From: an uncultured archaeon
GTDB taxonomy: Archaea > Asgardarchaeota > Lokiarchaeia > Sigyniarchaeales > SOKP01
Reading direction: 5' to 3'
DNA: 20,599 bases
NCBI GenBank assembly: GCA_964583985.1
Contig: CAZOYD010000062.1
Coordinates: 1-20,599 of the forward strand
Shown here: in pieces, positions 318 through 16,503 of the stretch
Layout: each line of letters opens with the position of its first letter
Position numbering within the stretch: the stretch's first letter is position 1
Position numbers and translations under genes: made by a program
The notes under the pieces: generated by a model
Told to the model about the DNA's origin: nothing
Databases searched by the model: none
The model's input: only the letters and a program-made list of their open reading frames with translations

Positions 318-674
318 TTACATCTTTGAGATTATTTCTTTTAGTACTGGTTCCCCGGCTGCACCGACCATAATACCGTTACGAACAACTGGTTCATTTT
401 GAACTTCGATAGTTTGTTCCAAAAGGCGACCATCTTTAAAAAAGAGTAAAGTAGGAATAGCTGTTATCCCAAATTTGTTTCCAAGAGGACGGTTTTGATC
501 CAGGTCTACTTTCAATAGTTTAATAAAACCTTCTTTTTCTAACTTTTCGAGGATCGGAGATAACCATTTGCAAGGTCCGCACCAATTCGTATACACATCG
601 ATAATAACCTTTCCTTGTTTCATATTGTCCGAAATCACAAGTCCAAATTCTTTTAATTCTTCAATGCTCAACAT
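318..674 (-). CDS. trxA: Thioredoxin
   Basis: WCGPC active site and cis-Pro motif AIPTLLFFKDG; short insertion before the last strand; 118 aa. Confidence 0.93.
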   Translation of the reverse strand: MLSIEELKEFGLVISDNMKQGKVIIDVYTNWCGPCKWLSPILEKLEKEGFIKLLKVDLDQNRPLGNKFGITAIPTLLFFKDGRLLEQTIEVQNEPVVRNGIMVGAAGEPVLKEIISKM

Positions 675-937: not shown

Positions 938-1441
938 ATGAACTATTCAAGGAATGAATTAGTGCAATCCGAAGCTACAATGAATCAAATGAGGAATGCT
1001 ATTTACCACCTGCAACGATTTATGAAAAAGAATGATTTAACTGAGATTAAAGAAAGATTCAAAAGAATGGGTAAAAATATTGCCCATACTTATGTGAAAT
1101 ATTGGAAACCAGTTAACAAATTTGATCTCAGCAATATTAGTGATGGTCTAGCAACAATATATAAAAATATCCTTAATAGCACGGTTACAATTGAAATTGA
1201 TTCATATAACAAAACTATTACGGTTAAAGATAATGATTGTGCTTTGTGTAAGTATCAATTTGAAGATATTAACGTAGCAGGTTGTGAGATAACTACTAAT
1301 ATGATAGCTGAATTCGTGAACCTTATTAATGCTCAATTTGGCGTTCCCTTCGCTTTAGAACCTTCCAATATTAAAGAATCACGTGCTTTGGGAAATAAAG
1401 CTTGTATTCACGTTTATAAGTATATTGAAGGAGGTAAATAA
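938..1441 (+). CDS. V4R/Bet3 (TRAPP)-fold protein, Bet3-like, 167 aa
   Basis: Helix RFKRMGKNIA resembles the Bet3-family L-x-x-M-G-x-N-I-G helix. V4R-type cysteine pattern DCALC...GCE...SRALGNKAC. Size matches a single Bet3 domain. Confidence 0.7.
   Translation: MNYSRNELVQSEATMNQMRNAIYHLQRFMKKNDLTEIKERFKRMGKNIAHTYVKYWKPVNKFDLSNISDGLATIYKNILNSTVTIEIDSYNKTITVKDNDCALCKYQFEDINVAGCEITTNMIAEFVNLINAQFGVPFALEPSNIKESRALGNKACIHVYKYIEGGK
1430..1435 (+). promoter_or_regulatory. Shine-Dalgarno site coupling the two Bet3/V4R-fold genes
   Basis: GGAGGT inside the 3' end of 938..1441, 8 nt before ATG 1444; the junction reads TAATAATG. Confidence 0.75.
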
Positions 1442-1443
1442 TA

Positions 1444-2919
1444 ATGGGAACAGTTCAATGGCTATTAAAAAAAATAACAAAAATATTTGGAAGGACTACT
1501 AATTCATTGTTCTATACACTTCTCTATCGAGAGATATTGAAAGAGATTAATGAAATAACAGAGAATGAAGAAGATACTCTCCTCCTTTTGAGAGAAATTG
1601 GAAGAAGAGCTTCATTTGAATCTTGCAATCGACATCCCACTGTGTTCAAATTTATGCCTGGAAATCCTCAAAAAGTACTTGAATATTTTGAATTATTATG
1701 GGTTGTGGTTTTTGGAAAAGAGCTTGCTGAAGGGGATTTAACATATGAAGAAGTGATAAATAAAGATGCAAAATATAATAATTACATACTTAAAATTAAG
1801 ACGTGTCCTATCTGTGCTGGCTATGGTCAAGATGAAGAAGATACCTTTAATTTTAGAAAGATAAAGAACCCTAATACAGAAGGTTTAGCATGTGGTTTAA
1901 CAGGAATGTTAGAAAGCGTAGCAAATTACATTCTCAATATAAAAAAAAGCGAATACCGTATATCAATATATGAACAAAAATGCATGGCTAAAGAAGAAGA
2001 ATGCCTCCAATTTTCTTGTAAAATTTATGATGTATCTGAATGGGAAAAGATCTCCTCTAAAAGTATCCAAGATCAACTAAAATCTGGTGTATTTTTTGAG
2101 GAATCGAGTGTCGAAGAACCAGTAATTGATACAAAAATGGATTTTATTGATAAGCTCCAAGATGTCATATCATTGGATAAAATTGAAGAATTACTAGACG
2201 AACCACTAGAAGGCATTAAACAAAAAGTTGCTGAATTAATAAGAGATAAATTAAACATGGAACCTAATCATTTTTTTGAATACTTTCGAAATTATGAAGA
2301 TGATCTTATTAGAATCATTGGATTCCTCATGGTTCATCTTTTAAATGAATATGGTGGGTTAATTGAGAAAATATTAGAAAATGAAACATTTTCGAAAATT
2401 GTGGGTTATTTCTTCAAACAACTAAAAGAATTTACTATGCTTTTTATTCCCATAGACGTGATTAATGATTATCATCAATTAATGGTCAGTTTCTTGGAGG
2501 GTTTAGCACCACCTGAAATGGTAGAAAATATAAAAAAATTTAATGGAAAGGATGATATTAATTTCTTTTATGAAGGTGCTCAAATGGCGCTTGAGAACCT
2601 TGGTATAAATTTTACTGAATTAAAAGAGAATGTGTGGGAAGAATTAAGAAGGGAGAAAAAGGATGAATTAATATCTTCGGATCCCTCAATGAGAGACAAA
2701 ACCGAAGAGCAACTTCCAAAAATCATCCGAATTGTACAAGAAATTTTAATGCTAATCGGTGATATTTTTACTTTACCATTGAGAGTATTAATTTCAGAAA
2801 GCCATTACGGATTAAAAACAGCCATAAATTCAGTTATTTCTGAAGAAGAGGGTTTATATGGTAAAATCAAAGCTAGACTTGATGTTATATTTGATTATAT
2901 TCAAGAGATCCGTAAATAA
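1444..2919 (+). CDS. Bet3/Trs31-like (TRAPP/V4R-fold) N-terminal domain fused to a ~290-aa helical C-terminal region
   Basis: Residues ~19-195 carry NSLFYTLLYREIL..ENEED..LREIGRR, W-x3-FGKE, CPIC, LACGLTGMLESV and EQKCMAKEEECLQF, which match Bet3-family helices plus V4R cysteines. The C-terminal part is acidic, helical and amphipathic. Confidence 0.72.
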   Translation: MGTVQWLLKKITKIFGRTTNSLFYTLLYREILKEINEITENEEDTLLLLREIGRRASFESCNRHPTVFKFMPGNPQKVLEYFELLWVVVFGKELAEGDLTYEEVINKDAKYNNYILKIKTCPICAGYGQDEEDTFNFRKIKNPNTEGLACGLTGMLESVANYILNIKKSEYRISIYEQKCMAKEEECLQFSCKIYDVSEWEKISSKSIQDQLKSGVFFEESSVEEPVIDTKMDFIDKLQDVISLDKIEELLDEPLEGIKQKVAELIRDKLNMEPNHFFEYFRNYEDDLIRIIGFLMVHLLNEYGGLIEKILENETFSKIVGYFFKQLKEFTMLFIPIDVINDYHQLMVSFLEGLAPPEMVENIKKFNGKDDINFFYEGAQMALENLGINFTELKENVWEELRREKKDELISSDPSMRDKTEEQLPKIIRIVQEILMLIGDIFTLPLRVLISESHYGLKTAINSVISEEEGLYGKIKARLDVIFDYIQEIRK

Positions 2920-3887: not shown

Positions 3888-6476
3888 ATGAGAAATTTAA
3901 CAAAAAAAGCAGTAATAAAATTATCAGTATTTATTCCTTTTACTGTTATCTTAATGACGGTCTTTTCGATACCTTTTATGGGGTTACCCTCATTAGGTGG
4001 GCTTTTATTTCCCGGAAATGGATTATGGAAAGTTCCAGGAGATCTTCCAGTCGCAGAAAGGTTAGATATTCAAGGGTTGAGAGGTGAAGTAACAGTTATA
4101 CGTGATGAATGGGGCATCCCTCATATTTATGCTTCATACGAAGAAGATCTTTTTTTTGCTCAAGGTTATTGTCATGCTCAGGATAGACTTTTCCAAATGG
4201 ATATGACTCGGCGCCAAGTACGAGGAATGTTGTCAGAAATATTAGGGGAAGATTTATTAGCTACAGATGAGTTAATGCTTGCTATAGGGATGGAAGATTG
4301 GGCAATTAAAACTGATGATTTGTTTAGAAAAATGTATAGTAATGGGACATTTCAATACTTTAGTTCTTTTGAAAGGTATGTTGATGGAATAAACTACTAC
4401 ATTGGAACTCATCAAGATGTCCTTCCATTAGAATATCATTTATTGGGTTTAAAACCTACTGAATGGAGTACCATTGATACGTTATGTTTAGTGCAAGAAA
4501 TGGCGAGGCAGATGTCTTGGAATTATCATGATTTGGATAGATACTCTGCTCTTTTAGCATTGAATACTATTAATCTTACTTATTATAATGAATTATATGG
4601 ACTTACCCTACCGTACCAAATTCCTATTGTCCCTGATTACGGAGCATTCCCAGAAAGTCCAATGAAAGCTGGATTTAAATTAAATCCTAGTCTCGTTTTA
4701 AATGCAGAAATTCAGAACCTCCTAACTAATGTTCAAAAAATAGATTCGGAGAAAATTTTGATGGAGAACCAAAAGGATCAAATAATTGGGTCAAATAATT
4801 GGGTTATTAATGGTTCTTTAAGCAATACAGGTGCACCAATTTTATGCAACGATATGCACCTTGGTTGGATGATGCCTGGAGTATGGTATGAACAAGATTT
4901 AAAGGCAGAAGATACTGGATTTCATGTATATGGATTTATAATACCTGGTATGCCTGGTGTTGCAGTAGGTCATAATGAAAGAGTCGGTTGGGGATTTACC
5001 AATACAGGATATGATGTTATAGATTGGTACTATTATAATACTGACGGACCAAATCAATACATTTACAATGGCACTTCAATACCTTATACCGAAAAAACCT
5101 ATGACATTAATGTTAAAGGAAAGGAACCTGTAGAATTTACTGTTAGACATACAGTCCATGGTCCTGTGCTCAGCGATTTGTCCAAAAGATTGCCAGAATC
5201 CTTAGGAGAAATAGTCATAGCACCAAAATGGATTACTAATGATTACTTCTTCAATATACTTGCGGGTAATGGATTCGATCGAGCATCAAATAGAGCTGAA
5301 TTTGACGAAGCTTCAAAATACTGGACATTGCTTGCACAAAATATAATATATGCTGATATTGATGGAAATATTGCAATTCGACCAACAGGAAAAGTTCCAA
5401 TTCGTGATGATTCTAAAATTCCCTTAGGACATCTTGGTAACGGAACTATCCCTTACAACGGTTCAAATGGGGAAGGTGAATGGATTGGTTACATACCCTT
5501 CGAAGACTTGCCTAATTCTTTAAACCCAGAACAGAAATATTTAGCATCTGCTAATCAAATCGTAGCAGGACCTGATTACACTAGTTATTTCTTGCAAAAT
5601 GAATATGCGGATGGATATAGAGCTAGAAGGATAAATGAACTACTAAGGAATGCAGCTGATGGGTCTATAAGTGTCGAAACCATGAAATTAATCCAAAATG
5701 ATGTAAATTCAACTGCTGCAAGAGCTTTTATTCCGGAATTAATTGATGTGATTCACGATTATTATGGTCCTACTCCCCCCACAAAAATAAATAATGTTCT
5801 CTTAGAATTAGAAAGTTGGCAATTTATAATGGATAAAAATGACGCGGTACCGACTATTTATCGCAAGTGGAGAGATTTTTTCCAAGATTTTACATTTAAT
5901 GACGAAAAGGAAGCATATAACTTTAGCACACAAACAAGAATCGTTGTCTTAGAATATTTAATGAAGGAAGAAAAATCTTCTCATTGGTTTAATGACGTTT
6001 CCACACCAATAAACGAAACTCGAGACGATATTATGATGATAGCATTAAATGCCACAATCGACTGGTTAGAAAAGTTTTATCATTCTGAAGACCCATCGAC
6101 TTGGAGGTGGGGTGACCTACATCAGTCATATTTTACATCTCTTACCCAATTAGATCCACTGAGTAAAGGACCTTATGAAACTAATGGAGAAGCATACACT
6201 ATCAATCCTGCTGGAGTAAATATAGATAATGGAGTTGGAATAGCTAGAGGTGGGTCATCTGAGCGTTTAATTATAGACTTTAGCAATCTCAATAATTCTT
6301 TAAGCGTAATTCCCTCAGGACAACGAGGTCTTTCAAATTCAAAACATTATTCCGATCAGCTAGAGCAACTATTCTTACAAGGAAAATACCATTATCAGTA
6401 TTATACGAATACATTGTCCAACTTTCCATCTTCTTCAATTGAATCTCAATTATTTTTCTTTCCAATAGGAGGTTAA
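3888..6476 (+). CDS. Penicillin acylase / acyl-homoserine-lactone acylase family Ntn hydrolase (peptidase S45), N-terminally membrane anchored
   Basis: Motifs RDEWGIPHIYA, AQGYCHAQDRLFQMD, catalytic GSNNW, NDMHL, HGPV, SANQ and PSGQ. N-terminal hydrophobic segment. GAGGT SD at 3877-3881. Confidence 0.95.
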   Translation: MRNLTKKAVIKLSVFIPFTVILMTVFSIPFMGLPSLGGLLFPGNGLWKVPGDLPVAERLDIQGLRGEVTVIRDEWGIPHIYASYEEDLFFAQGYCHAQDRLFQMDMTRRQVRGMLSEILGEDLLATDELMLAIGMEDWAIKTDDLFRKMYSNGTFQYFSSFERYVDGINYYIGTHQDVLPLEYHLLGLKPTEWSTIDTLCLVQEMARQMSWNYHDLDRYSALLALNTINLTYYNELYGLTLPYQIPIVPDYGAFPESPMKAGFKLNPSLVLNAEIQNLLTNVQKIDSEKILMENQKDQIIGSNNWVINGSLSNTGAPILCNDMHLGWMMPGVWYEQDLKAEDTGFHVYGFIIPGMPGVAVGHNERVGWGFTNTGYDVIDWYYYNTDGPNQYIYNGTSIPYTEKTYDINVKGKEPVEFTVRHTVHGPVLSDLSKRLPESLGEIVIAPKWITNDYFFNILAGNGFDRASNRAEFDEASKYWTLLAQNIIYADIDGNIAIRPTGKVPIRDDSKIPLGHLGNGTIPYNGSNGEGEWIGYIPFEDLPNSLNPEQKYLASANQIVAGPDYTSYFLQNEYADGYRARRINELLRNAADGSISVETMKLIQNDVNSTAARAFIPELIDVIHDYYGPTPPTKINNVLLELESWQFIMDKNDAVPTIYRKWRDFFQDFTFNDEKEAYNFSTQTRIVVLEYLMKEEKSSHWFNDVSTPINETRDDIMMIALNATIDWLEKFYHSEDPSTWRWGDLHQSYFTSLTQLDPLSKGPYETNGEAYTINPAGVNIDNGVGIARGGSSERLIIDFSNLNNSLSVIPSGQRGLSNSKHYSDQLEQLFLQGKYHYQYYTNTLSNFPSSSIESQLFFFPIGG

Positions 6477-7031: not shown

Positions 7032-7403
7032 TTAATCTAATAAGGCAGATATTCTATTGGAAACACTCTGGATGTTTAGAAAAACCATTCCGAGACTGCT
7101 TTGCGCACCACACAAAGTACATAAAATGGCATTTTCTCCCGCTTTAGATAAAATGATAATTCCATTTACACCTTCAATCAAAATTCGTTTTAGTTCCCCA
7201 CGATTTAATTCCTCTACTGCACGTTCTGATACACTCTGTATAGCGGCTGACATTGCAGACACGATCCCATCATTAACATTTCTACTTAGGACTGAACAAA
7301 TTGGTAATCCTTGAATACTAACTATAGCAGAACCTTCTATATCCGAGTTAACAGCAGATAATTTTCTTAACAAATCTGTCAATTCGCTGATGTTTTCAGA
7401 CAC
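7032..7403 (-). CDS. Roadblock/LC7 (MglB/LAMTOR-like) domain protein
   Basis: IEGSAIVSIQGLPI..VSAMSAA..ERAVEELNRGELKRILIEG..AIL..LGMVF pattern; GTG start with AGGTGG SD (7413-7418, minus strand). Confidence 0.93.
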   Translation of the reverse strand: MSENISELTDLLRKLSAVNSDIEGSAIVSIQGLPICSVLSRNVNDGIVSAMSAAIQSVSERAVEELNRGELKRILIEGVNGIIILSKAGENAILCTLCGAQSSLGMVFLNIQSVSNRISALLD

Positions 7404-8631: not shown

Positions 8632-9741
8632 ATGAAAAAATTAAAAATTTGCCTGATAAGTCTCACAATTTCTCCTGATAGTGAAGATGGAGCAGCAAAA
8701 TTTATAAAAGGAGTATATAAATACCTAAAAAACCAAGGGCATGATGTCAAAGTAATTACAGGAAAATGGAACTTTGATTTAAATGATCCAGACATTATAC
8801 AAGTGAAGCTTATAAGGAGAAGTTATTTCTGGCTTCCACAATTTATGCTTAAAGTCAGAAAAATTCTGAAAAAATCAAATTTTGATATAATTCATTTAAA
8901 TGGACCAAAAGCTTTAACGCCCTTTTTATTTTCAAATCAGAAGAGATTTTTAGCTACAATCCACGATTTAGGACCTATTGAAACGAAATTTTCCATAATA
9001 CCTATCGAAAAAATATTAATAAAACTTCTAATAAAAAGGGCGTTAATTTTAACCACTTGTTCTGATTTTGTTAAATATCAAATTAAACAAGTCTTTCCGA
9101 AAACTGACATCAATAAAATTTTCAATTTATATTCTGCAATAGAATCAAAATTCATCCCGTATCATTCAGAATCGATGATTTTAAAGAGAAAAATGGGATT
9201 AAAAGAACCCATTCTACTATATATAGGTCGCATTGCTGCCTATAAAGGCGTTCCGGATATAATTAAAGCATATCAACTCGCTAAACCTCAAGTCAAAAAT
9301 CTTGAACTGGTTATAGGAGGAACCCCGGATTTTTCAATGAAAAGTACTTATCAAGATTGGATAAAAAAATATCCCGATATCAAGTTTACCGGTTTCGTTA
9401 GCCCAGACGAAATACCTATTTATTATTCAATGGCAGACATTTTCATCACTTATTCCTATGCTTCTGAGGGATTTGGATTAACTCCTATAGAAGCGATTGC
9501 ATGTGGTACGCCTGTAATTTGTTCATCCCTTAAAGTTTTTAAAGAAGTTTTAGGTGATAATGCAATATTCGTTCCTCCCAGGAGACCAGATATCTTGGCT
9601 AAAGAAATTATTAACCTAATTCAAGATGATAACAAAAGGCAAAAATTAATAGAAAGATCTAGTTCTTATATTAAAAAATTTTCATGGGACTCGGTTGGAC
9701 AAAAATTAGAAGACGTATATCATAAATTTTTGAGTCTATAG
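8632..9741 (+). CDS. Glycosyltransferase family 4 (GT-B)
   Basis: GHDVKVIT, TIHD, YIGRIAAYKG and EGFGLTPIEAIACGTPVI (EX7E motif). Confidence 0.93.
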   Translation: MKKLKICLISLTISPDSEDGAAKFIKGVYKYLKNQGHDVKVITGKWNFDLNDPDIIQVKLIRRSYFWLPQFMLKVRKILKKSNFDIIHLNGPKALTPFLFSNQKRFLATIHDLGPIETKFSIIPIEKILIKLLIKRALILTTCSDFVKYQIKQVFPKTDINKIFNLYSAIESKFIPYHSESMILKRKMGLKEPILLYIGRIAAYKGVPDIIKAYQLAKPQVKNLELVIGGTPDFSMKSTYQDWIKKYPDIKFTGFVSPDEIPIYYSMADIFITYSYASEGFGLTPIEAIACGTPVICSSLKVFKEVLGDNAIFVPPRRPDILAKEIINLIQDDNKRQKLIERSSSYIKKFSWDSVGQKLEDVYHKFLSL

Positions 9742-9854
9742 AGTAAGTTTAATCATGGATTTATATTGTTCATTACAGGATTAACGCAGATATCATTATT
9801 ATCGAATAAAAATTTAACCCGATTAAGACTAAAAACAATCTGTCGTGTGCTCAA

Positions 9855-10961
9855 TCATTGTTTTTTTAGTTTTTCCTTGACGTAATTAAAACAGATATCA
9901 ATTGGGTTTTCAAATTGACTGATTTTTTCTCGATAGGATAAATTAAACCTACTCGACGTTGGTCCATTTTTAAGAATTTCAATTGATCTTTTAATAATTT
10001 CTTCACTTTCTTTTATATGTTCCAGAGAAAATCCATTCTTTATCAAAAACAAATCTTGCGGTGGTGTTTCTCCTGGGAAAAACTCCAAACTTGGAATATT
10101 TAATAAACTAGATTCTCTAATAATTGTTCCACCACCACTAATAACCAGGGCTGCATAAAAACATAAATCAGTTATGTGGGGTAAATATCTGGTAATTATT
10201 ACATTTTTTTTATCCGCATAGTCTTTTAATTGTGATTTTAACCATTGTTCCTGCATCTCGGATCTTACTAAAATGAAATATTTATAATCAGAAAATTCTT
10301 CATAAATCGAAGGGAAAAACTTTGCTAGCAATGTTTCTTCAGGTTTCATTTGATTAACTAAATAACTCGCAGTTGAAGGTTCAGTCCTTAACAGAATATA
10401 TCGTCCTTTCTCAATATCATATTCTTGGAGATTTTTTAAATTTGGTCTATAAGTCGATAACCATGCAATTTCATCAAGGGCATTCATCCGGATGATTTTT
10501 TCGGGATCCGCACAAAGTCGTTCGTATTGTTCTTGTGGAATACATTTTGGAGTAATAATTTTGTCTATAAACGGAAATAATAATTTAGAGACATGATAAC
10601 TTCTGGGCTCGTCACTAAATCCAATAGAACGTATTTGAAGCCCGAAAGATATCCTTACGCCTTCTACAGACCCGAAAGTTACAAAGAAATCCGGATTAAA
10701 TTCTGTCACATAAGGTAATAGATCTTGCACTCTCTCAGAATACGCTTCCAATTTTCCTACTAAGGAATCACCCCCATGTCTACCAACTTTTATATATTTA
10801 AATCCTGTATCATCCATTATTTGAAAAGTTGAGTCAAAATCCCTTGCTGTAATCATCAAAGTGGCTTTTTCATCTTCAAATTTTTTAAAAAGGGATTTAA
10901 ACATTATCCCCGCTTTGGGTTCTTCTATATCAATCCAGATTTTTTTGCCACTTAGACTCAT
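9855..10961 (-). CDS. DUF354-like GT-B fold protein (putative glycosyltransferase), 368 aa
   Basis: Family-like N-terminus KKIWIDI..ITARD..VGRHGG and ISGGGTIIRESSLLNIPS. Start reassigned to ATG 10961 (MSLSGKKIWIDIE) because the track's longer ORF overlaps the opposite gene. Confidence 0.8.
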   Translation of the reverse strand: MSLSGKKIWIDIEEPKAGIMFKSLFKKFEDEKATLMITARDFDSTFQIMDDTGFKYIKVGRHGGDSLVGKLEAYSERVQDLLPYVTEFNPDFFVTFGSVEGVRISFGLQIRSIGFSDEPRSYHVSKLLFPFIDKIITPKCIPQEQYERLCADPEKIIRMNALDEIAWLSTYRPNLKNLQEYDIEKGRYILLRTEPSTASYLVNQMKPEETLLAKFFPSIYEEFSDYKYFILVRSEMQEQWLKSQLKDYADKKNVIITRYLPHITDLCFYAALVISGGGTIIRESSLLNIPSLEFFPGETPPQDLFLIKNGFSLEHIKESEEIIKRSIEILKNGPTSSRFNLSYREKISQFENPIDICFNYVKEKLKKQ

Positions 10962-11061
10962 TAAAATATCACATTTATTTTTTTTTTTATTTTTTGAAAA
11001 ATCTACTTGAATTGTAAATAAAGCGAAACTTTTAAGATTTTTAGGATGTTTTACTTTACTT

Positions 11062-11649
11062 ATGTCAAGTAAAGAATTAAATTTTAGCTTACAAAAAAAT
11101 GTGATTTTAAATAAACAACCTGTTTTTGGCCCTACTTCTCGTTTTGCAGGCAAGGAAAAAGACCTTCCGGATACAATCATTGGAGATGGTTCCATAATCT
11201 GTTCTCTCTCAGTGATATATGCTGGAACAACTCTTGGAAAACAAGTTTTTGTCGCTGATGGAGCATCAGTTCGTGAAAATGTTCAGATCGGTGACAATAC
11301 AATAATTGGGAGAAACGTGACAATCGAACTCAACACAAAAATTGGAAAAAGAACAAAGATCCAGACATCTGCTCATATAACTGGAGACTGCATTATAGGT
11401 GATGATGTCTTTATCGGACCAGAAGCTTGTACAATGAATGATATGTATATGGGAGCAAAGGATATCACAATGACAGGACCAATATTTGAGGACGGTTGTT
11501 TAGTTGGAGGGAATGCCACAATACTTCCAGGAGTTAGAATTGGTAAAAATGCGGTTGTTGGAGCGGGTTCTGTAGTCACTAAAGATGTGCCTCCTAATGA
11601 AATTTGGGTGGGGAATCCTGCTAAATTCATTAAAATGCGGGATTGGTAA
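11062..11649 (+). CDS. Hexapeptide-repeat (left-handed beta-helix) sugar N/O-acetyltransferase, WbpD/WxcM-like
   Basis: Repeated IGxxxx hexapeptides; VFIGP..MND; [35 protein letters not shown]. Confidence 0.9.
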
Positions 11650-11720
11650 CTAAGATATACCGTATTTAGTATCAAATTTTTATTATTTTCTTAATCTTCC
11701 TATATTTACCACATTTGAAT

Positions 11721-12014
11721 TTAATTTTTACACTGACATGGATTAGAACTGCACTTTTTACATTTACCTGGATATTTGAAAGTTAAAGCTTCTTCTAAAT
11801 CAATTTCCATTAAATTTGCAATTGAAGTTGCCCAAGCTATTACATCTGCCAATTCTTCTGATATTTTATCAGAATCGATCAATTGTTTATTCAATAATGT
11901 AGCTAGTTCACCTATTTCCTCTACAAGCCATATAAATGTGTTATTAATTCCTCTTTCTGAATCTTTTTTAAAATACAGATTTCGAATTAGATCCTGAAAC
12001 TCAGAAATTTTCAT
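11721..12014 (-). CDS. MazG-like nucleotide pyrophosphohydrolase with C-terminal Cys cluster
   Basis: WLVEEIGELA..EELADVIAW..ANL..IDLEEA..KY followed by CKKCSSNPCQC. Confidence 0.9.
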   Translation of the reverse strand: MKISEFQDLIRNLYFKKDSERGINNTFIWLVEEIGELATLLNKQLIDSDKISEELADVIAWATSIANLMEIDLEEALTFKYPGKCKKCSSNPCQCKN

Positions 12015-12056
12015 GATGAGGATAAAGTTGGATGATACATATCAATGAGATGGCTC

Positions 12057-12266
12057 TCATGCTCCAGGAGTGAAAAACCAATTAAATACCCCTAAATGAG
12101 CGAGAAAAACGACAACTATCAACGCTAATGATATTATTAGAGTACTAATAGGGCTTACTTTAAGACCTATTGAACTATCTTCAAAAAATCGCATTAATCC
12201 TGCACCACCTGAGGGCATTGGTGCTGTACCACTTCTTCTTTTTTTCCGTCTCGATTGACTTGACAT
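12057..12266 (-). CDS. secG: Preprotein translocase subunit Sec61beta (archaeal SecG)
   Basis: Basic N-terminus, GAGLMRFFED..GLKVSP motif, single C-terminal TM helix ending in H; 69 aa. Confidence 0.92.
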   Translation of the reverse strand: MSSQSRRKKRRSGTAPMPSGGAGLMRFFEDSSIGLKVSPISTLIISLALIVVVFLAHLGVFNWFFTPGA

Positions 12267-12413
12267 GATTTAGTCTGGAATAATTTCTATTAAATTAAAA
12301 TAAAATTACACATATAATAAGTTTTATTTTGAATTGTGATGGAAAATATGATAAATTTTTATTATTAATTTTAATTATCTTCAGATAATTTAAGTAAGAA
12401 ATGGTTTATAGTA
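12267..12413. promoter_or_regulatory. Putative bidirectional promoter region between Sec61beta and the ribophorin I-like gene
   Basis: 147-bp very AT-rich gap between divergent starts. TATA-like TTATTATA with A-rich upstream flank on the minus strand (12313-12320) and TTTTATTA on the plus strand (about 12357-12364). Confidence 0.4.
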
Positions 12414-14252
12414 ATGTCGAATAAAAAGAAACTTTCAGTTGTATTTGGTGGATTAATAGTAATCTTGATTATAATTTCATTTATTGGATTTCCTCAAGGA
12501 TCTTCAAATTTGAATCAAGAAGAGGACGCAAATTTGAACTTATCTGCAAGTTTTGAAGGATTTGAAAATATCAAGATAACTGATATAAAGCATAATGTGA
12601 ACATAAGCGGATATGGACTTGTTAATATAGAAGATAGATTCATGGTATTAAATCAAAATTCCAATCCAATTACATCAATTTTCGTGGGAATTCGTACTGA
12701 AGATTCTGATAATTTGATCTATCTACTAGCAATGGGAATAACTAATAATGATCTTGCTACCGAACGAAATTCAATGATTTATAATAAATATGAATTAATT
12801 ACAATCTATTTCGATTCTCCACTTCTTCCTCAGCAAACAAGACTTATAAGAATGAAATATACCTTAAAAGATCAATTATCATACATAAATACGGGAAATC
12901 AACAAATCAATTTTTCTGGAAATGTATTTCCATACTTACCTTACGTAGCTGAAGGTGATATTAAAGCTTCCTTTAGATTAGCAGAAAGCGCAACTGAATC
13001 ATCCCATGATAGCGTATTTGGAATGGGGTCTATTGTTGGAAATGTTATATTGTATGATTTAGCACAAAGTCTTGAGATAGATCATTTGGATCCTTTCTTG
13101 ATGAATTTAGAACCAGACCAATTAATTAATATAGTTTTTCAAGATTCTTCATCGACTAATATGGAATTAGAATCAGTGAATCGCGAAATAGTAATTTCGC
13201 CTTGGGGAATAGTCAAGGTTAAAGAGGACCATGTCATAAAAAATGTAGGTGTCATTAGTCTCTATAGTATACCCTTTCAAGTACCAGATAATGCAATTAA
13301 TATACATGTTGGAGACAGTCTTGGTGAATTATTAGGAACGACTGTTGAAAATATTGGCAATAAAAAAGAAGTCACGATCAACCTTCTATATAATAGAGCT
13401 TTATTAGATCCTAATAATAAATTAAGGTATACAATTGAATATAATTTACCTTTTGATGATTATTTTTCAATGAATTGGTTCCAAGAATCAATTCAACTAA
13501 ACTTGATTACAACAACTCATGAATACTTTATCAAAAATCAAATTATTAAGGTTTTCATTCAAGGGTGTAGCACTATTGATTACATCTCAAGTCCTCCTGA
13601 TGGCATTGATCAAACGAGTGGTTCCAAAATAATCATGTATACTTCGGAAGATATTAGTCCTTATGAAGGTAAGGTGATACTCTTCACATTTACTCTTAAC
13701 TATTTTGACCTAATGATTAGACCAATAATCTTTATTTTACTCATAGCCTCAATACTATCAATATTCGTTGTTCTAGTAAAAACTAAGAAGAGAGAAGGAG
13801 ATACAGCATTAATTAGCGCACAATCTATCCCTATCAACGAGATCAGAGAATTTTGTTCATTATATGAAGAAAAAAATGCTTTAATTCTTGAAATTAGAAA
13901 AGCGGAAGAAGAAGCTAGAAGGAAAAAACTGGCTAAAAAATCATACAATAATATTGTCACTAAGAATAATGCAAAAATCGAGCAAATTAAACAAGAAATT
14001 ATTCCATTCTCTAAACTATTGACAGAAAATAGTGCGATTTTTGGAAGTATTATCAATAAACTAGATGTGCTTGATGCTGAACGAGTTAGTGTAGATGATA
14101 GTATCAATCTTCTCGATCAACGTTATAAGAGAGGAAAGTTACCTTCTCGCACAGCATATCAAAAACTTTCTGATGATTTCTTACGTAGAAAAAAGAAAAT
14201 TGATCGTACAATAGATAAATACATCCAACAATTAAGAAGCTACTTATTATAG
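12414..14252 (+). CDS. Ribophorin I (Ost1/RPN1)-like oligosaccharyltransferase accessory subunit
   Basis: N-terminal signal/anchor; two beta-rich repeats (VNISGYGLVNIED and REIVISPWGIVKVKED, compare RPN1 R-x-I-E-V-S-H-W-G-x-I-x-V-E-E); YTIEYNLP; one TM helix near residues 435-455; basic helical C-terminal tail. Confidence 0.8.
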   Translation: MSNKKKLSVVFGGLIVILIIISFIGFPQGSSNLNQEEDANLNLSASFEGFENIKITDIKHNVNISGYGLVNIEDRFMVLNQNSNPITSIFVGIRTEDSDNLIYLLAMGITNNDLATERNSMIYNKYELITIYFDSPLLPQQTRLIRMKYTLKDQLSYINTGNQQINFSGNVFPYLPYVAEGDIKASFRLAESATESSHDSVFGMGSIVGNVILYDLAQSLEIDHLDPFLMNLEPDQLINIVFQDSSSTNMELESVNREIVISPWGIVKVKEDHVIKNVGVISLYSIPFQVPDNAINIHVGDSLGELLGTTVENIGNKKEVTINLLYNRALLDPNNKLRYTIEYNLPFDDYFSMNWFQESIQLNLITTTHEYFIKNQIIKVFIQGCSTIDYISSPPDGIDQTSGSKIIMYTSEDISPYEGKVILFTFTLNYFDLMIRPIIFILLIASILSIFVVLVKTKKREGDTALISAQSIPINEIREFCSLYEEKNALILEIRKAEEEARRKKLAKKSYNNIVTKNNAKIEQIKQEIIPFSKLLTENSAIFGSIINKLDVLDAERVSVDDSINLLDQRYKRGKLPSRTAYQKLSDDFLRRKKKIDRTIDKYIQQLRSYLL

Positions 14253-14285
14253 TATCTTTTTATTGAATTAAAAGGATCATATATT

Positions 14286-14912
14286 ATGAAACCATGGTTA
14301 TTTGATATTTTAGCGTGTCCGATTGATAAACATTTTCCCTTAAAATTATATATTTTTTCTTATGAAACTACTGAGGATGAATTTCTTGAGTTTTTAGATG
14401 TATTTGAAAATAGAAAATTGGATACGATCAAGAAAGAGGAACTCATTTATTATGTTAAGCAGGATGGAAACATATTCATCAAAGATGGCATATCAATAAA
14501 AGAAATTCCATTTTCTGAATATTTATCTCTTATTAAAGCAAGCATCAAGGAATTAGAAAATCTGATTGATAAAACAGGAATCAAACCAATAATAAAATGT
14601 CAGGAAATCCTTACTACATATGTAATGGAGAAAATTAGTAATTTGAGTGAAGGTAACTTAAGTTTAAATGTAATTGATGAAATATTACCCGAACTCTATC
14701 TTCTGAATAAGTATAAGCTCGATAGTGAAATTGAATCAGGCTTACTTTTTTGCGAGGAATGCATGCGTTGGTTTCCCATATTAGAAAGCATACCACAAAT
14801 GCTACCTGATGAATATAGAAATGAAGAAAATGATCTGCAATTCCTTAAAAACCATAAAAATTTATTTGATCCCGAATTTTTTAAACAAAATTTACGTCCT
14901 TATAATCTTTAA
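14286..14912 (+). CDS. trm112: Trm112 methyltransferase activator, long form with central insertion
   Basis: N-terminal MKPWLFDILACPIDKHFPLKL and C-terminal EIESGLLFCEECMRWFPILESIPQMLPDEYR form the split Zn-knuckle of Trm112. Confidence 0.88.
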   Translation: MKPWLFDILACPIDKHFPLKLYIFSYETTEDEFLEFLDVFENRKLDTIKKEELIYYVKQDGNIFIKDGISIKEIPFSEYLSLIKASIKELENLIDKTGIKPIIKCQEILTTYVMEKISNLSEGNLSLNVIDEILPELYLLNKYKLDSEIESGLLFCEECMRWFPILESIPQMLPDEYRNEENDLQFLKNHKNLFDPEFFKQNLRPYNL

Positions 14913-14932
14913 ATAAGTAAGCAACATATAAT

Positions 14933-15034
14933 AGCCCGGTGGTGTAGTGGCCAAGCATCTGGGGCCTTGAACCCCGTGACCACGGTTCGAAAACTGATGA
15001 ATAATTTCATCAGTCGAATATCCGTGCCGGGCTA
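14933..15034 (+). tRNA. tRNA-Gln(UUG) with a 29-nt intron at position 59/60 (intron 14992-15020); CCA not encoded
   Basis: Acceptor stem AGCCCGG/CCGGGCT (A1-U72, typical of archaeal tRNA-Gln); D stem GTGT/GCAT; anticodon stem TGGGG/CCCCG with loop CCTTGAA (TTG at 14967-14969); T stem CACGG/CCGTG. Removing the intron restores the T loop TTCGAAT. T-tract follows at 15035. Confidence 0.93.
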
Positions 15035-15156
15035 TTTTGATTTCTTTTCTCGTCAAATTATTTAGCATAGTTGATCGATAAAAATAAAATATTATATTTT
15101 AGCAATTATTTTATTTTTTAGCCTTGTTGACAGCTTAAATATTAAAGGGATATAAA

Positions 15157-16503
15157 ATGATACTGACTGAACTAAATTGGGATTTTTCTGAAATTATTTT
15201 ACTAATTATTATATTCATTATAGGAATAGTATTTACGTACTTTATAATACCCCCAATTATAAAATTGATGAAAAAGAAGAATTATATTGGATATGATATA
15301 CATAAAAATAGTAGACCTCAAGTAGCGGAATCAGGAGGTATAAGTATTGTAATAGGTTATTCTGTTATTTCTATTTTGTTAATTTTAGCTTTCCCTCTAT
15401 TTTCAAATGAAATATTTGTATTACTTATATCCGTAATTTTATCTGGCATCATTGGTTTTTTGGATGATCGAATTAAACTCAAATCTAGATATAAGATTTT
15501 TTTAGTGTTATTTATTGGAATGATAATTTTCATAGCGAATTTCTTTGGTTTCATTACTATCGAATCTCCTACTATCCCATTTTTAGGAAAATTAAGGTTA
15601 AATATAATTTATCCATTATTAGCACCATTAATTGTAGCTGTTTTTGGAAATACGGTTAATATGTTAGAAGGATATAACGGAGAAGGTTCAGGCACATGCC
15701 TTATTGCATTAATATCCTTACTTATTTGTGGCTTAATATGGAATTCTGCAGAAGCTATATTATTCACCACTATAGGAATTGCTGTTTTAATACCTTTTTT
15801 TTATTATAATAAATATCCTGCAAAAATTTTTCCAGGAGATGTAGGAACTTTAAGTATGGGTACAATTCTAGCGGGAGTTGCATTATTTGGATCCTTAGAA
15901 GCCGCAGTATTTTGTGCGCTCTTAATTCATGTATTCAATAGTTTTTATGTGTTATACTCCGTGAAAGGATTTTTCGAGAGTTCAGAAATACAAGAAGATA
16001 TGAATGATATCCTTCTTTTAGAGGATGATAGAATAAAAGCGTCAAGCAATAAAGAAGCAGCGTTGACTTTACCAAGGCTGATTCTGGCTCGAGGACCGCT
16101 AAAAGAGCCAGATTTGGTAAAAAATTTTTTTGCAATTTCAATTATTTGTGGCTTTTTTGCAATTTTTACCACTTTAATGATGGCAATTACGGTCAATAAA
16201 ATAAGCATTATTTTTTTAGGATTCCTCGCACCTTATCTAATCATATTTTCATTCATTCTTCTTATTTTCTTTCCGAGAATTAGAGGGATAATCTCTATCA
16301 TGATAATTGTAATGATTGGAGGTTATCTTTTATTATATTTCATTAATTTAGTGATAATGCCAGTTCATTTTGCCAATTTAATCTTATTTGGAATTGTAAT
16401 ACCTACTAATATTATAATATCTCTAATACTTGTAATTCCGTGCTTAGGATTATGGTATTATATCTCCATCCGTTATTTCCAAAAAGAATCAAGAAAAATG
16501 TAA
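15157..16503 (+). CDS. aglH: UDP-GlcNAc:dolichyl-phosphate GlcNAc-1-phosphate transferase (GPT/Alg7/AglH type) with extra C-terminal TM helices
   Basis: GYDIHK, AESGG, GFLDD, NTVNMLEGYNG (GPT-type rather than the MraY/WecA DGLDG), YPAKIFPGDVGT and TLPRLILARGPLKE. Confidence 0.8.
   Translation: MILTELNWDFSEIILLIIIFIIGIVFTYFIIPPIIKLMKKKNYIGYDIHKNSRPQVAESGGISIVIGYSVISILLILAFPLFSNEIFVLLISVILSGIIGFLDDRIKLKSRYKIFLVLFIGMIIFIANFFGFITIESPTIPFLGKLRLNIIYPLLAPLIVAVFGNTVNMLEGYNGEGSGTCLIALISLLICGLIWNSAEAILFTTIGIAVLIPFFYYNKYPAKIFPGDVGTLSMGTILAGVALFGSLEAAVFCALLIHVFNSFYVLYSVKGFFESSEIQEDMNDILLLEDDRIKASSNKEAALTLPRLILARGPLKEPDLVKNFFAISIICGFFAIFTTLMMAITVNKISIIFLGFLAPYLIIFSFILLIFFPRIRGIISIMIIVMIGGYLLLYFINLVIMPVHFANLILFGIVIPTNIIISLILVIPCLGLWYYISIRYFQKESRKM

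Follow-up and report, generated by a model that had tools for sequence, protein, structure and literature searches.

The window analysed here is a 20,599-nt stretch (positions 1 to 20,599 of contig CAZOYD010000062.1, assembly GCA_964583985.1) from an uncultured archaeon of the class Lokiarchaeia, order Sigyniarchaeales. Two genes on its forward strand, gene 1 (938..1441) and gene 2 (1444..2919), appear to constitute a conserved two-gene operon of Lokiarchaeia whose products, referred to as A and B, are best read as deeply diverged paralogues in the V4R superfamily, on its Asgard TRAPPC3/Bet3-like branch, each with a predicted two-layer alpha/beta Bet3 fold and a putative four-cysteine zinc clamp. 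The core of the eukaryotic TRAPP complex, which tethers vesicles, is made of Bet3-family heterodimers, namely Bet3-Trs31 (TRAPPC3-C5) and Bet3-Trs33 (TRAPPC3-C6). The origin of membrane traffic includes a step still to be explained, in which a homodimeric prokaryotic V4R protein gave rise to several paralogues that heterodimerise. The V4R domain has been linked to Bet3 (Podar et al. 2008, PMC2253512), and a solved structure shows a Thorarchaeota protein, Thor-TRAPPC3, to be homodimeric, to contain a zinc site and to be closest to TRAPPC3 (Tran et al. 2024, PMC10933270). That work has already described TRAPPC3-like proteins of Asgard archaea and placed them between V4R and TRAPP (PMC10933270), proposing a V4R-to-TRAPP intermediate for Thor-TRAPPC3 and for a protein of strain MK-D1. 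The same idea is reasonable for the pair described here.

Gene 1 encodes 167 residues and gene 2 encodes 491. Their junction (1430..1446, plus strand) reads GGAGGT-N3-TAA-TA-ATG, in which the GGAGGT (1430-1435) is still part of gene 1, close to its 3' end; it is followed by the TAA stop (1439-1441), and a 2-nt spacer then leads to the gene 2 ATG at 1444. The reading frames and the junction sequence bear out the original prediction, which was made by a model from the sequence alone, that the two genes are translationally coupled through a GGAGGT Shine-Dalgarno sequence. The pair is flanked upstream by a divergently transcribed thioredoxin gene and downstream by a convergent gene for a membrane protein; genes 1 and 2 therefore form a stand-alone bicistronic unit. 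Because the genes are translationally coupled, A and B would probably be made in similar amounts. The G+C content of the window is about 30%.

As a single sequence, gene 1 had no relevant match in Pfam, NCBIfam or the PDB, and neither PF04051 at E <=1 nor V4R (PF02830) matched it. A profile of 55 gene 1 homologues matched Thorarchaeota TRAPPC3 (7YH2/7YH3) at E 1e-5 in a search of the PDB, and a more diverse profile, A4, matched Thor-TRAPPC3 at E 4.3e-9 when run as a hidden Markov model against the same database. The next-best PDB matches of A4 were mammalian Bet3 proteins over helices alpha1-alpha2, which are marginal at E 0.03-0.2, and no V4R protein was among its PDB matches. The by-eye likeness that had been drawn between RMGKNIA of gene 1 and MG-NIG of Bet3 holds in part: the profile aligns this stretch to mouse Bet3 residues 8-58, but at an E value of only 0.03. 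The AlphaFold2 model of gene 1 has a predicted local distance difference test (pLDDT) score of 82 and Bet3 topology. When Foldseek's best 1000 chains were re-aligned to this model, the top 24 all belonged to the TRAPP family, led by Thor-TRAPPC3 (7yh3_C, Z 15.1), with Bet3 at Z 12.7-13.9 (mouse 1wc8, 13.9) and TPC6 at 13.0-13.8 (2bjn, 13.8); for MopR, PoxR, MJ1460, BcsD and H-NOX the Z score drops to <=10.1.

The product of gene 2 is composed of an amphipathic helix, a Bet3-like domain, a linker and a helical C-terminal domain, as read from the open reading frame and its AlphaFold2 model. Neither alone nor as a profile did gene 2 yield a Pfam, NCBIfam or PDB sequence match; none of 49 gene 2 homologues matched PF04051, one of the 49 matched V4R (PF02830) at E 0.13, and the profile of the N-terminal domain found nothing in the PDB, Thor-TRAPPC3 included. 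The Bet3/TRAPPC3-like domain, residues 19-205 (1498..2058, plus strand), was modelled with a pLDDT of about 80-90, and residues 16-205 of the model superpose on human Bet3 (1sz7) with Z 14.8 and a root-mean-square deviation of 2.6 A over 157 of 159 residues. Its Z scores were 13.5-14.8 with Bet3 structures, 14.6 with Thor-TRAPPC3 and 13.1 with TPC6, and at most 10.0 with V4R sensors. With the chains 7e8s_G and 3cue_B, presumed to be Trs31 from their residue ranges, it scored 10.7-10.9. Since the Bet3 scores lie above those of the presumed Trs31 chains, B is Bet3-like and not specifically Trs31-like. The Trs31/TRAPPC5 identity that had been suggested for gene 2 is therefore rejected, Bet3 and TPC6 giving Z 13-15 against 10.7-10.9 for the probable Trs31 chains, and with it the assignment of the pair as Bet3-Trs31, both proteins being Bet3-like. 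For both models, every TRAPP chain ranks above every V4R, H-NOX and BcsD chain. The fold common to the V4R superfamily is visible in both as well, with Z 9.4-10.1 to PoxR, MopR and DmpR and 7.9-9.8 to MJ1460. The proposal that each protein has a Bet3/V4R-type domain accordingly stands by the AlphaFold2 models (Z 13-15) but not by the Pfam TRAPP and V4R thresholds, which neither protein reaches.

The relationships among these proteins were examined by aligning profiles built from divergent orthologues of the class genomes, A3 for the N-terminal domain of B and A4 for A, together with A6 for Thor TRAPPC3 and A5 for its V4R gene neighbour. With hhalign, A matched Thor TRAPPC3 at 97.5% (E 7.7e-12) and B matched it at 93.9% (E 1.5e-7); B also matched the Thor V4R neighbour at 88% (E 3e-6), and A and B matched each other at 78% (E 1.8e-5). 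The comparison of A with the Thor V4R protein was not significant (17%), nor were those of A or B with three V4R-like proteins of the window's genome (<=5%). In the early, shallow profiles A1 and A2, with an effective number of sequences of 1.7-2.3, the A-B relation reached just 1%; it became visible only once divergent genome orthologues were added in A3 and A4. Genome-wide scanning with PF04051 did not pick up the locus, and the corresponding V4R scan found five other V4R-like loci and not that of genes 1 and 2. From the hhalign comparisons it follows that A and B are ancient paralogues within the TRAPPC3-like branch and not ordinary V4R proteins. That they are very diverged paralogues within the Bet3/TRAPPC3-V4R superfamily, as had been predicted, is supported by these alignments, and the view that both are nearer to TRAPP-type than to ordinary V4R proteins is supported by predicted structure and by profile alike; neither the structure ranking nor the profiles nest the two domains among ordinary V4R proteins.

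Both proteins keep the V4R-type zinc cysteines that had been recognised in them. In A, C101, C104, C116 and C156 (span 1238..1405, plus strand; predicted zinc site) are present in 55 of 55 family homologues and in 27-30 of 30 proteins class-wide, and in the profile alignment they coincide with the CxxC...C...C zinc ligands of Thor-TRAPPC3, for which zinc was demonstrated crystallographically (PMC10933270) and whose zinc site ties the beta-sheet to a helix. The predicted site of B comprises C121, C124, C150 and C180 (span 1804..1983, plus strand), which are kept in 48-49 of 49 proteins of the window's family but in just 13-16 of 26 class-wide. Among the families of the class, which we number f1 to f7, all four zinc cysteines of B are gone in f3, where CPxC has become D/N-P-M/L-x-F/Y, whereas A of this family mostly retains its own. 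Such B proteins were seen at L038:4982-5599 (minus strand), L039:4583-5191 (plus), L040:4329-4946 (plus) and other f3 loci; a 6.04-Mb single-contig genome belongs to this family. This loss recalls that in mouse TRAPPC3, in which a hydrogen bond replaces the zinc site (PMC10933270).

The distribution of the pair was determined by searching 399 genomes of the phylum, 159 of them from Lokiarchaeia and about 240 from other classes. Within Lokiarchaeia, 147 genomes yielded A, 148 yielded B and about 147 yielded the pair; genomes outside the class gave weak matches to Thor-type TRAPPC3 only. All 287 gene 2 homologues, at 66-92% identity, came from Lokiarchaeia-type metagenome-assembled genomes, with Lokiarchaeota and Promethearchaeota archaeon among the names given to homologues, and the B profile run against 1.84 billion representative proteins returned 52 matches, the named ones being from Lokiarchaeota or Helarchaeota. 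The gene pairing proposed for synteny analysis turned out to be kept class-wide: at all 49 loci carrying both genes they are adjacent and on the same strand. Their spacing is <=21 nt at 48 loci and most often 2 nt, and at 9 loci they overlap. In families f1-f4, which make up the window's order, B is fused to the C-terminal domain. In f5-f7, from other orders, B is a stand-alone protein of 190-195 residues encoded directly after A; therefore, the conserved core consists of two single-domain Bet3-like proteins.

The strongest class-wide motif of A is NQxRN, seen in the window as NQMRN at residues 16-20 of helix alpha1 (983..997, plus strand), and the best-conserved motif of B, Y-R-E, also lies in its helix alpha1. 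N-Q-x-R-N was found in all 28 A proteins encoded next to a B gene, and two additional A-like paralogues that lack such a neighbour do not have it. In the Bet3 family and in Thor-TRAPPC3, alpha1 and the N-terminal helices form the dimer interface (PMC10933270), and NQxRN of A may be placed in such an interface. Extra A-like paralogues with no B beside them and no NQxRN belong to family f5 and occur at L049:383-862 (minus strand), L051:4199-4702 (plus) and L050:2308-3126 (plus).

Ahead of its Bet3-like domain, B has a cationic amphipathic helix at residues 3-17 (1450..1494, plus strand). Its hydrophobic moment is 0.64, the 95th percentile of other 15-mers being 0.52, and its net charge is +4 and positive in 26 of 26 orthologues. 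The AlphaFold2 model of gene 2 also places a helix at residues 2-14, at low pLDDT. These properties suggest that the helix binds membranes and is a probable membrane anchor.

Behind the Bet3-like domain, a linker of low pLDDT (34-53, and <50 for residues 228-254) occupies residues 206-254 (2059..2205, plus strand) and differs in length among orthologues. It leads to an all-helical C-domain, residues 255-491 (2206..2916, plus strand), which was modelled with pLDDT 50-80 and occurs in the window's genome in gene 2 only. In families f5-f7 this domain is fused instead to a HAD_2 hydrolase (E 4e-33); the gene for the fusion lies just upstream of A and B in two genomes, and another copy lies elsewhere. 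HAD_2-C-domain fusions were located at L043:5161-6738 (minus strand), L052:1-1218 (plus) and L092:625-2091 (plus). The C-domain has been shuffled between a phosphatase, the HAD protein, and the Bet3-like B, and its occurrence on a HAD phosphatase in sister orders suggests a third, exchangeable partner. We considered whether it is a degenerate second Bet3/Trs33-like module and rejected this, as the domain is all-helical, reaches <=2.4% in hhalign against Bet3-like domains and occurs separately on HAD proteins. The best PDB match of the C-domain profiles A2 and A7 was ARL2BP/BART (2K0S, 3DOE, 2K9A), below significance at E 0.11 and 0.02, over some 65-105 C-domain residues that include an NE-Y/G...EK...LAP/FxEM pattern. 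With a low-confidence model of the domain, this match is a weak lead and not a relationship. A search of the ESM Atlas with the C-domain gave no usable match.

On balance we lean towards a reading in which A and B form a 1:1 heterodimer of Bet3-like zinc proteins that the N-terminal helix of B tethers to the membrane and whose C-domain recruits a further partner. A would pair with B through the N-terminal helices in the manner of Bet3-Trs31 or Bet3-Trs33, the helix of B would serve as the anchor, and in the window's order B would additionally carry the C-domain as a helical adaptor. The pair would then most likely act as a membrane-associated scaffold or a hydrophobic-ligand-binding module. 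The predicted folds, the profile links, the distribution and adjacency of the genes, the stand-alone form of B and the gene pair of Thor-type genomes speak for this reading; for pairing through alpha1/alpha2 the support is indirect and comes from the operon coupling and the conserved alpha1 motifs. Several points weigh against this reading. Thor-TRAPPC3, the nearest solved relative, is homodimeric in both of its crystal forms, and homodimers were predicted with AlphaFold2 for the MK-D1 'TRAPPC3', a PoxR-like protein and a Heimdall protein (PMC10933270). A natural A-B fusion, sought among longer forms of gene 1 (388-2000 residues), was not found, which is weak evidence, and no conserved longin, roadblock or GTPase gene was found where such neighbours were looked for around the pair. 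Both structures are predictions, that of the C-domain being of low confidence. These homodimers, together with V4R sensors such as PoxR, which are homodimeric too (PMC10933270), would also fit co-expressed A and B proteins that form separate homodimers and work in parallel or one after the other, as in the handing over of a hydrophobic ligand. We consider this less likely, as tight class-wide coupling and strict co-occurrence are typical of the subunits of one complex, NQxRN is confined to A proteins with a B neighbour, and the eukaryotic members of the family heterodimerise.

A further reading concerns what the pair does, whatever its oligomeric state: it may be a V4R-type module that binds or senses small molecules or lipids in a metabolic or regulatory role, with no part in GTPase regulation or membrane traffic, so that its likeness to TRAPP reflects shared ancestry only. 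We regard this as quite possible, if short of probable. The zinc clamp is shared with V4R proteins and Thor-TRAPPC3; Tran et al. favour a ligand-binding role (PMC10933270); a 98%-identical homologue is labelled 'predicted hydrocarbon binding protein' in IMG; by ESM-Atlas features the N-terminal domain of B is nearest to V4R clusters (score 0.89, a lead only); its C-domain is shared with a HAD phosphatase; and the operon contains no GTPase or longin gene. Against it, the Z scores of the A and B models are 3-5 units higher with TRAPP subunits than with V4R sensors, and neither profile comes near the genome's own ordinary V4R proteins. These structural and profile differences leave room for ligand binding, because mouse Bet3 itself binds palmitate (PMC10933270). 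At the other extreme, the pair could be a minimal pre-eukaryotic TRAPP-like module that connects Bet3-fold scaffolds with GTPase signalling, an obligate heterodimer bound to the membrane by the helix of B whose BART-like C-domain binds an Arf/Arl-type GTPase, with the Thor TRAPPC3-V4R pair as a sister version; to this we give little credence. That the Bet3/V4R likeness of gene 2 is a chance pattern picked out by eye would agree with the missing database matches and with the 1% of the first A-B profile. It is very improbable given the fit of the N-terminal domain to human Bet3 and the links of the diverse profiles to Thor-TRAPPC3 and its V4R neighbour, and the idea that gene 2 has no true Bet3/V4R domain is largely refuted by the same results.

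A comparable arrangement exists in Thor-type genomes, where a three-gene cluster encodes a protein of about 320 residues, a TRAPPC3-like protein of the crystallised family and a V4R protein (L044:444-2546 in genome G311, L046:731-2824 in G365, and L069-L088). The TRAPPC3-like protein passes the Pfam TRAPP threshold with 31.9 bits and the adjoining protein matches PF02830 with 44.9 bits. The cluster, and with it the TRAPPC3-V4R pair, was seen at 20 of 20 loci, and the V4R neighbour is present in 59 of 61 genomes. The crystallised Thor-TRAPPC3 homodimer may have a natural partner. The upstream protein of about 320 residues has a C-terminal winged helix with weak HTH_47/DUF742 matches; a roadblock-like N-terminal domain, guessed by eye, found no support in Pfam or PDB profile searches.

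Other genes of the window were recorded alongside. Within the window's family, 21 of 30 loci have the thioredoxin gene (318-674, minus strand, in the window) next to gene 1; the other families do not. A Roadblock/LC7 gene (7032-7403, minus strand; Pfam 55.5 bits) lies about 4 kb 3' of the pair, and no Robl_LC7 gene was found near the pair in the scanned 10-kb loci of other families. Positions 3888-6476 (plus strand) hold an 862-residue open reading frame that by eye resembles a penicillin-amidase-type N-terminal-nucleophile hydrolase with a membrane segment at its N-terminus. By Pfam matches, positions 8632-16503 contain a glycosylation-type gene run with a GT4 glycosyltransferase, DUF354, a Trm112-like protein and Glycos_transf_4 (GPT/Alg7-type).

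Earlier work dealt with single, homodimerising proteins, and here a coupled operon with two diverged paralogues of Bet3 type is kept throughout a class. We did not see the B paralogue, its conserved operon with A, the B-C-domain and HAD-C-domain fusions or the Thor TRAPPC3-V4R pair described in the literature searched. The pairs of Lokiarchaeia and Thor-type genomes provide defined partners for tests of heterodimerisation, and the N-terminal helix and the C-domain provide defined parts for tests of membrane and GTPase binding. If A and B do heterodimerise, paralogue pairing in the Bet3 family arose in archaea, and if the Thor pair is a sister version of such a heterodimer, heterodimeric Bet3-type cores would predate eukaryotes. 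If A and B do not heterodimerise, the pair is still an unannotated module conserved across a class.

Compared with known systems, A and B share the superfamily fold and the Cys4 zinc pattern of V4R proteins (PF02830), such as the PoxR/MopR/DmpR sensors and MJ1460, but they stay below the Pfam V4R threshold and score Z <=10.1 against these proteins versus 13-15 against TRAPP proteins. Eukaryotic TRAPP heterodimers likewise consist of two paralogous Bet3-fold subunits, and the predicted models of A and B have their best structural matches there in Bet3 and TPC6. They differ from these subunits in an identity of only about 10-14%, in keeping the zinc site, in an operon without Bet5/Trs23-type longin partners and in that neither is specifically Trs31-like; the heterodimer, too, is one that we infer here. 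The closest likeness is to the Asgard TRAPPC3-like proteins Thor-TRAPPC3 and MKD1-TRAPPC3, which share with A and B the predicted fold, the four-cysteine zinc pattern and profile homology and are, like them, structurally nearer to Bet3 than to V4R sensors. The published MK-D1 protein (WP_147663132.1) and gene 1 probably fall into one orthologue family. Thor-TRAPPC3 lies above the Pfam TRAPP threshold and A and B lie below it. Whereas the published proteins are products of single genes and form homodimers, the present locus combines two diverged paralogues in one coupled operon, and its B adds an amphipathic N-terminal helix and, in the window's order, a helical domain of 240 residues.

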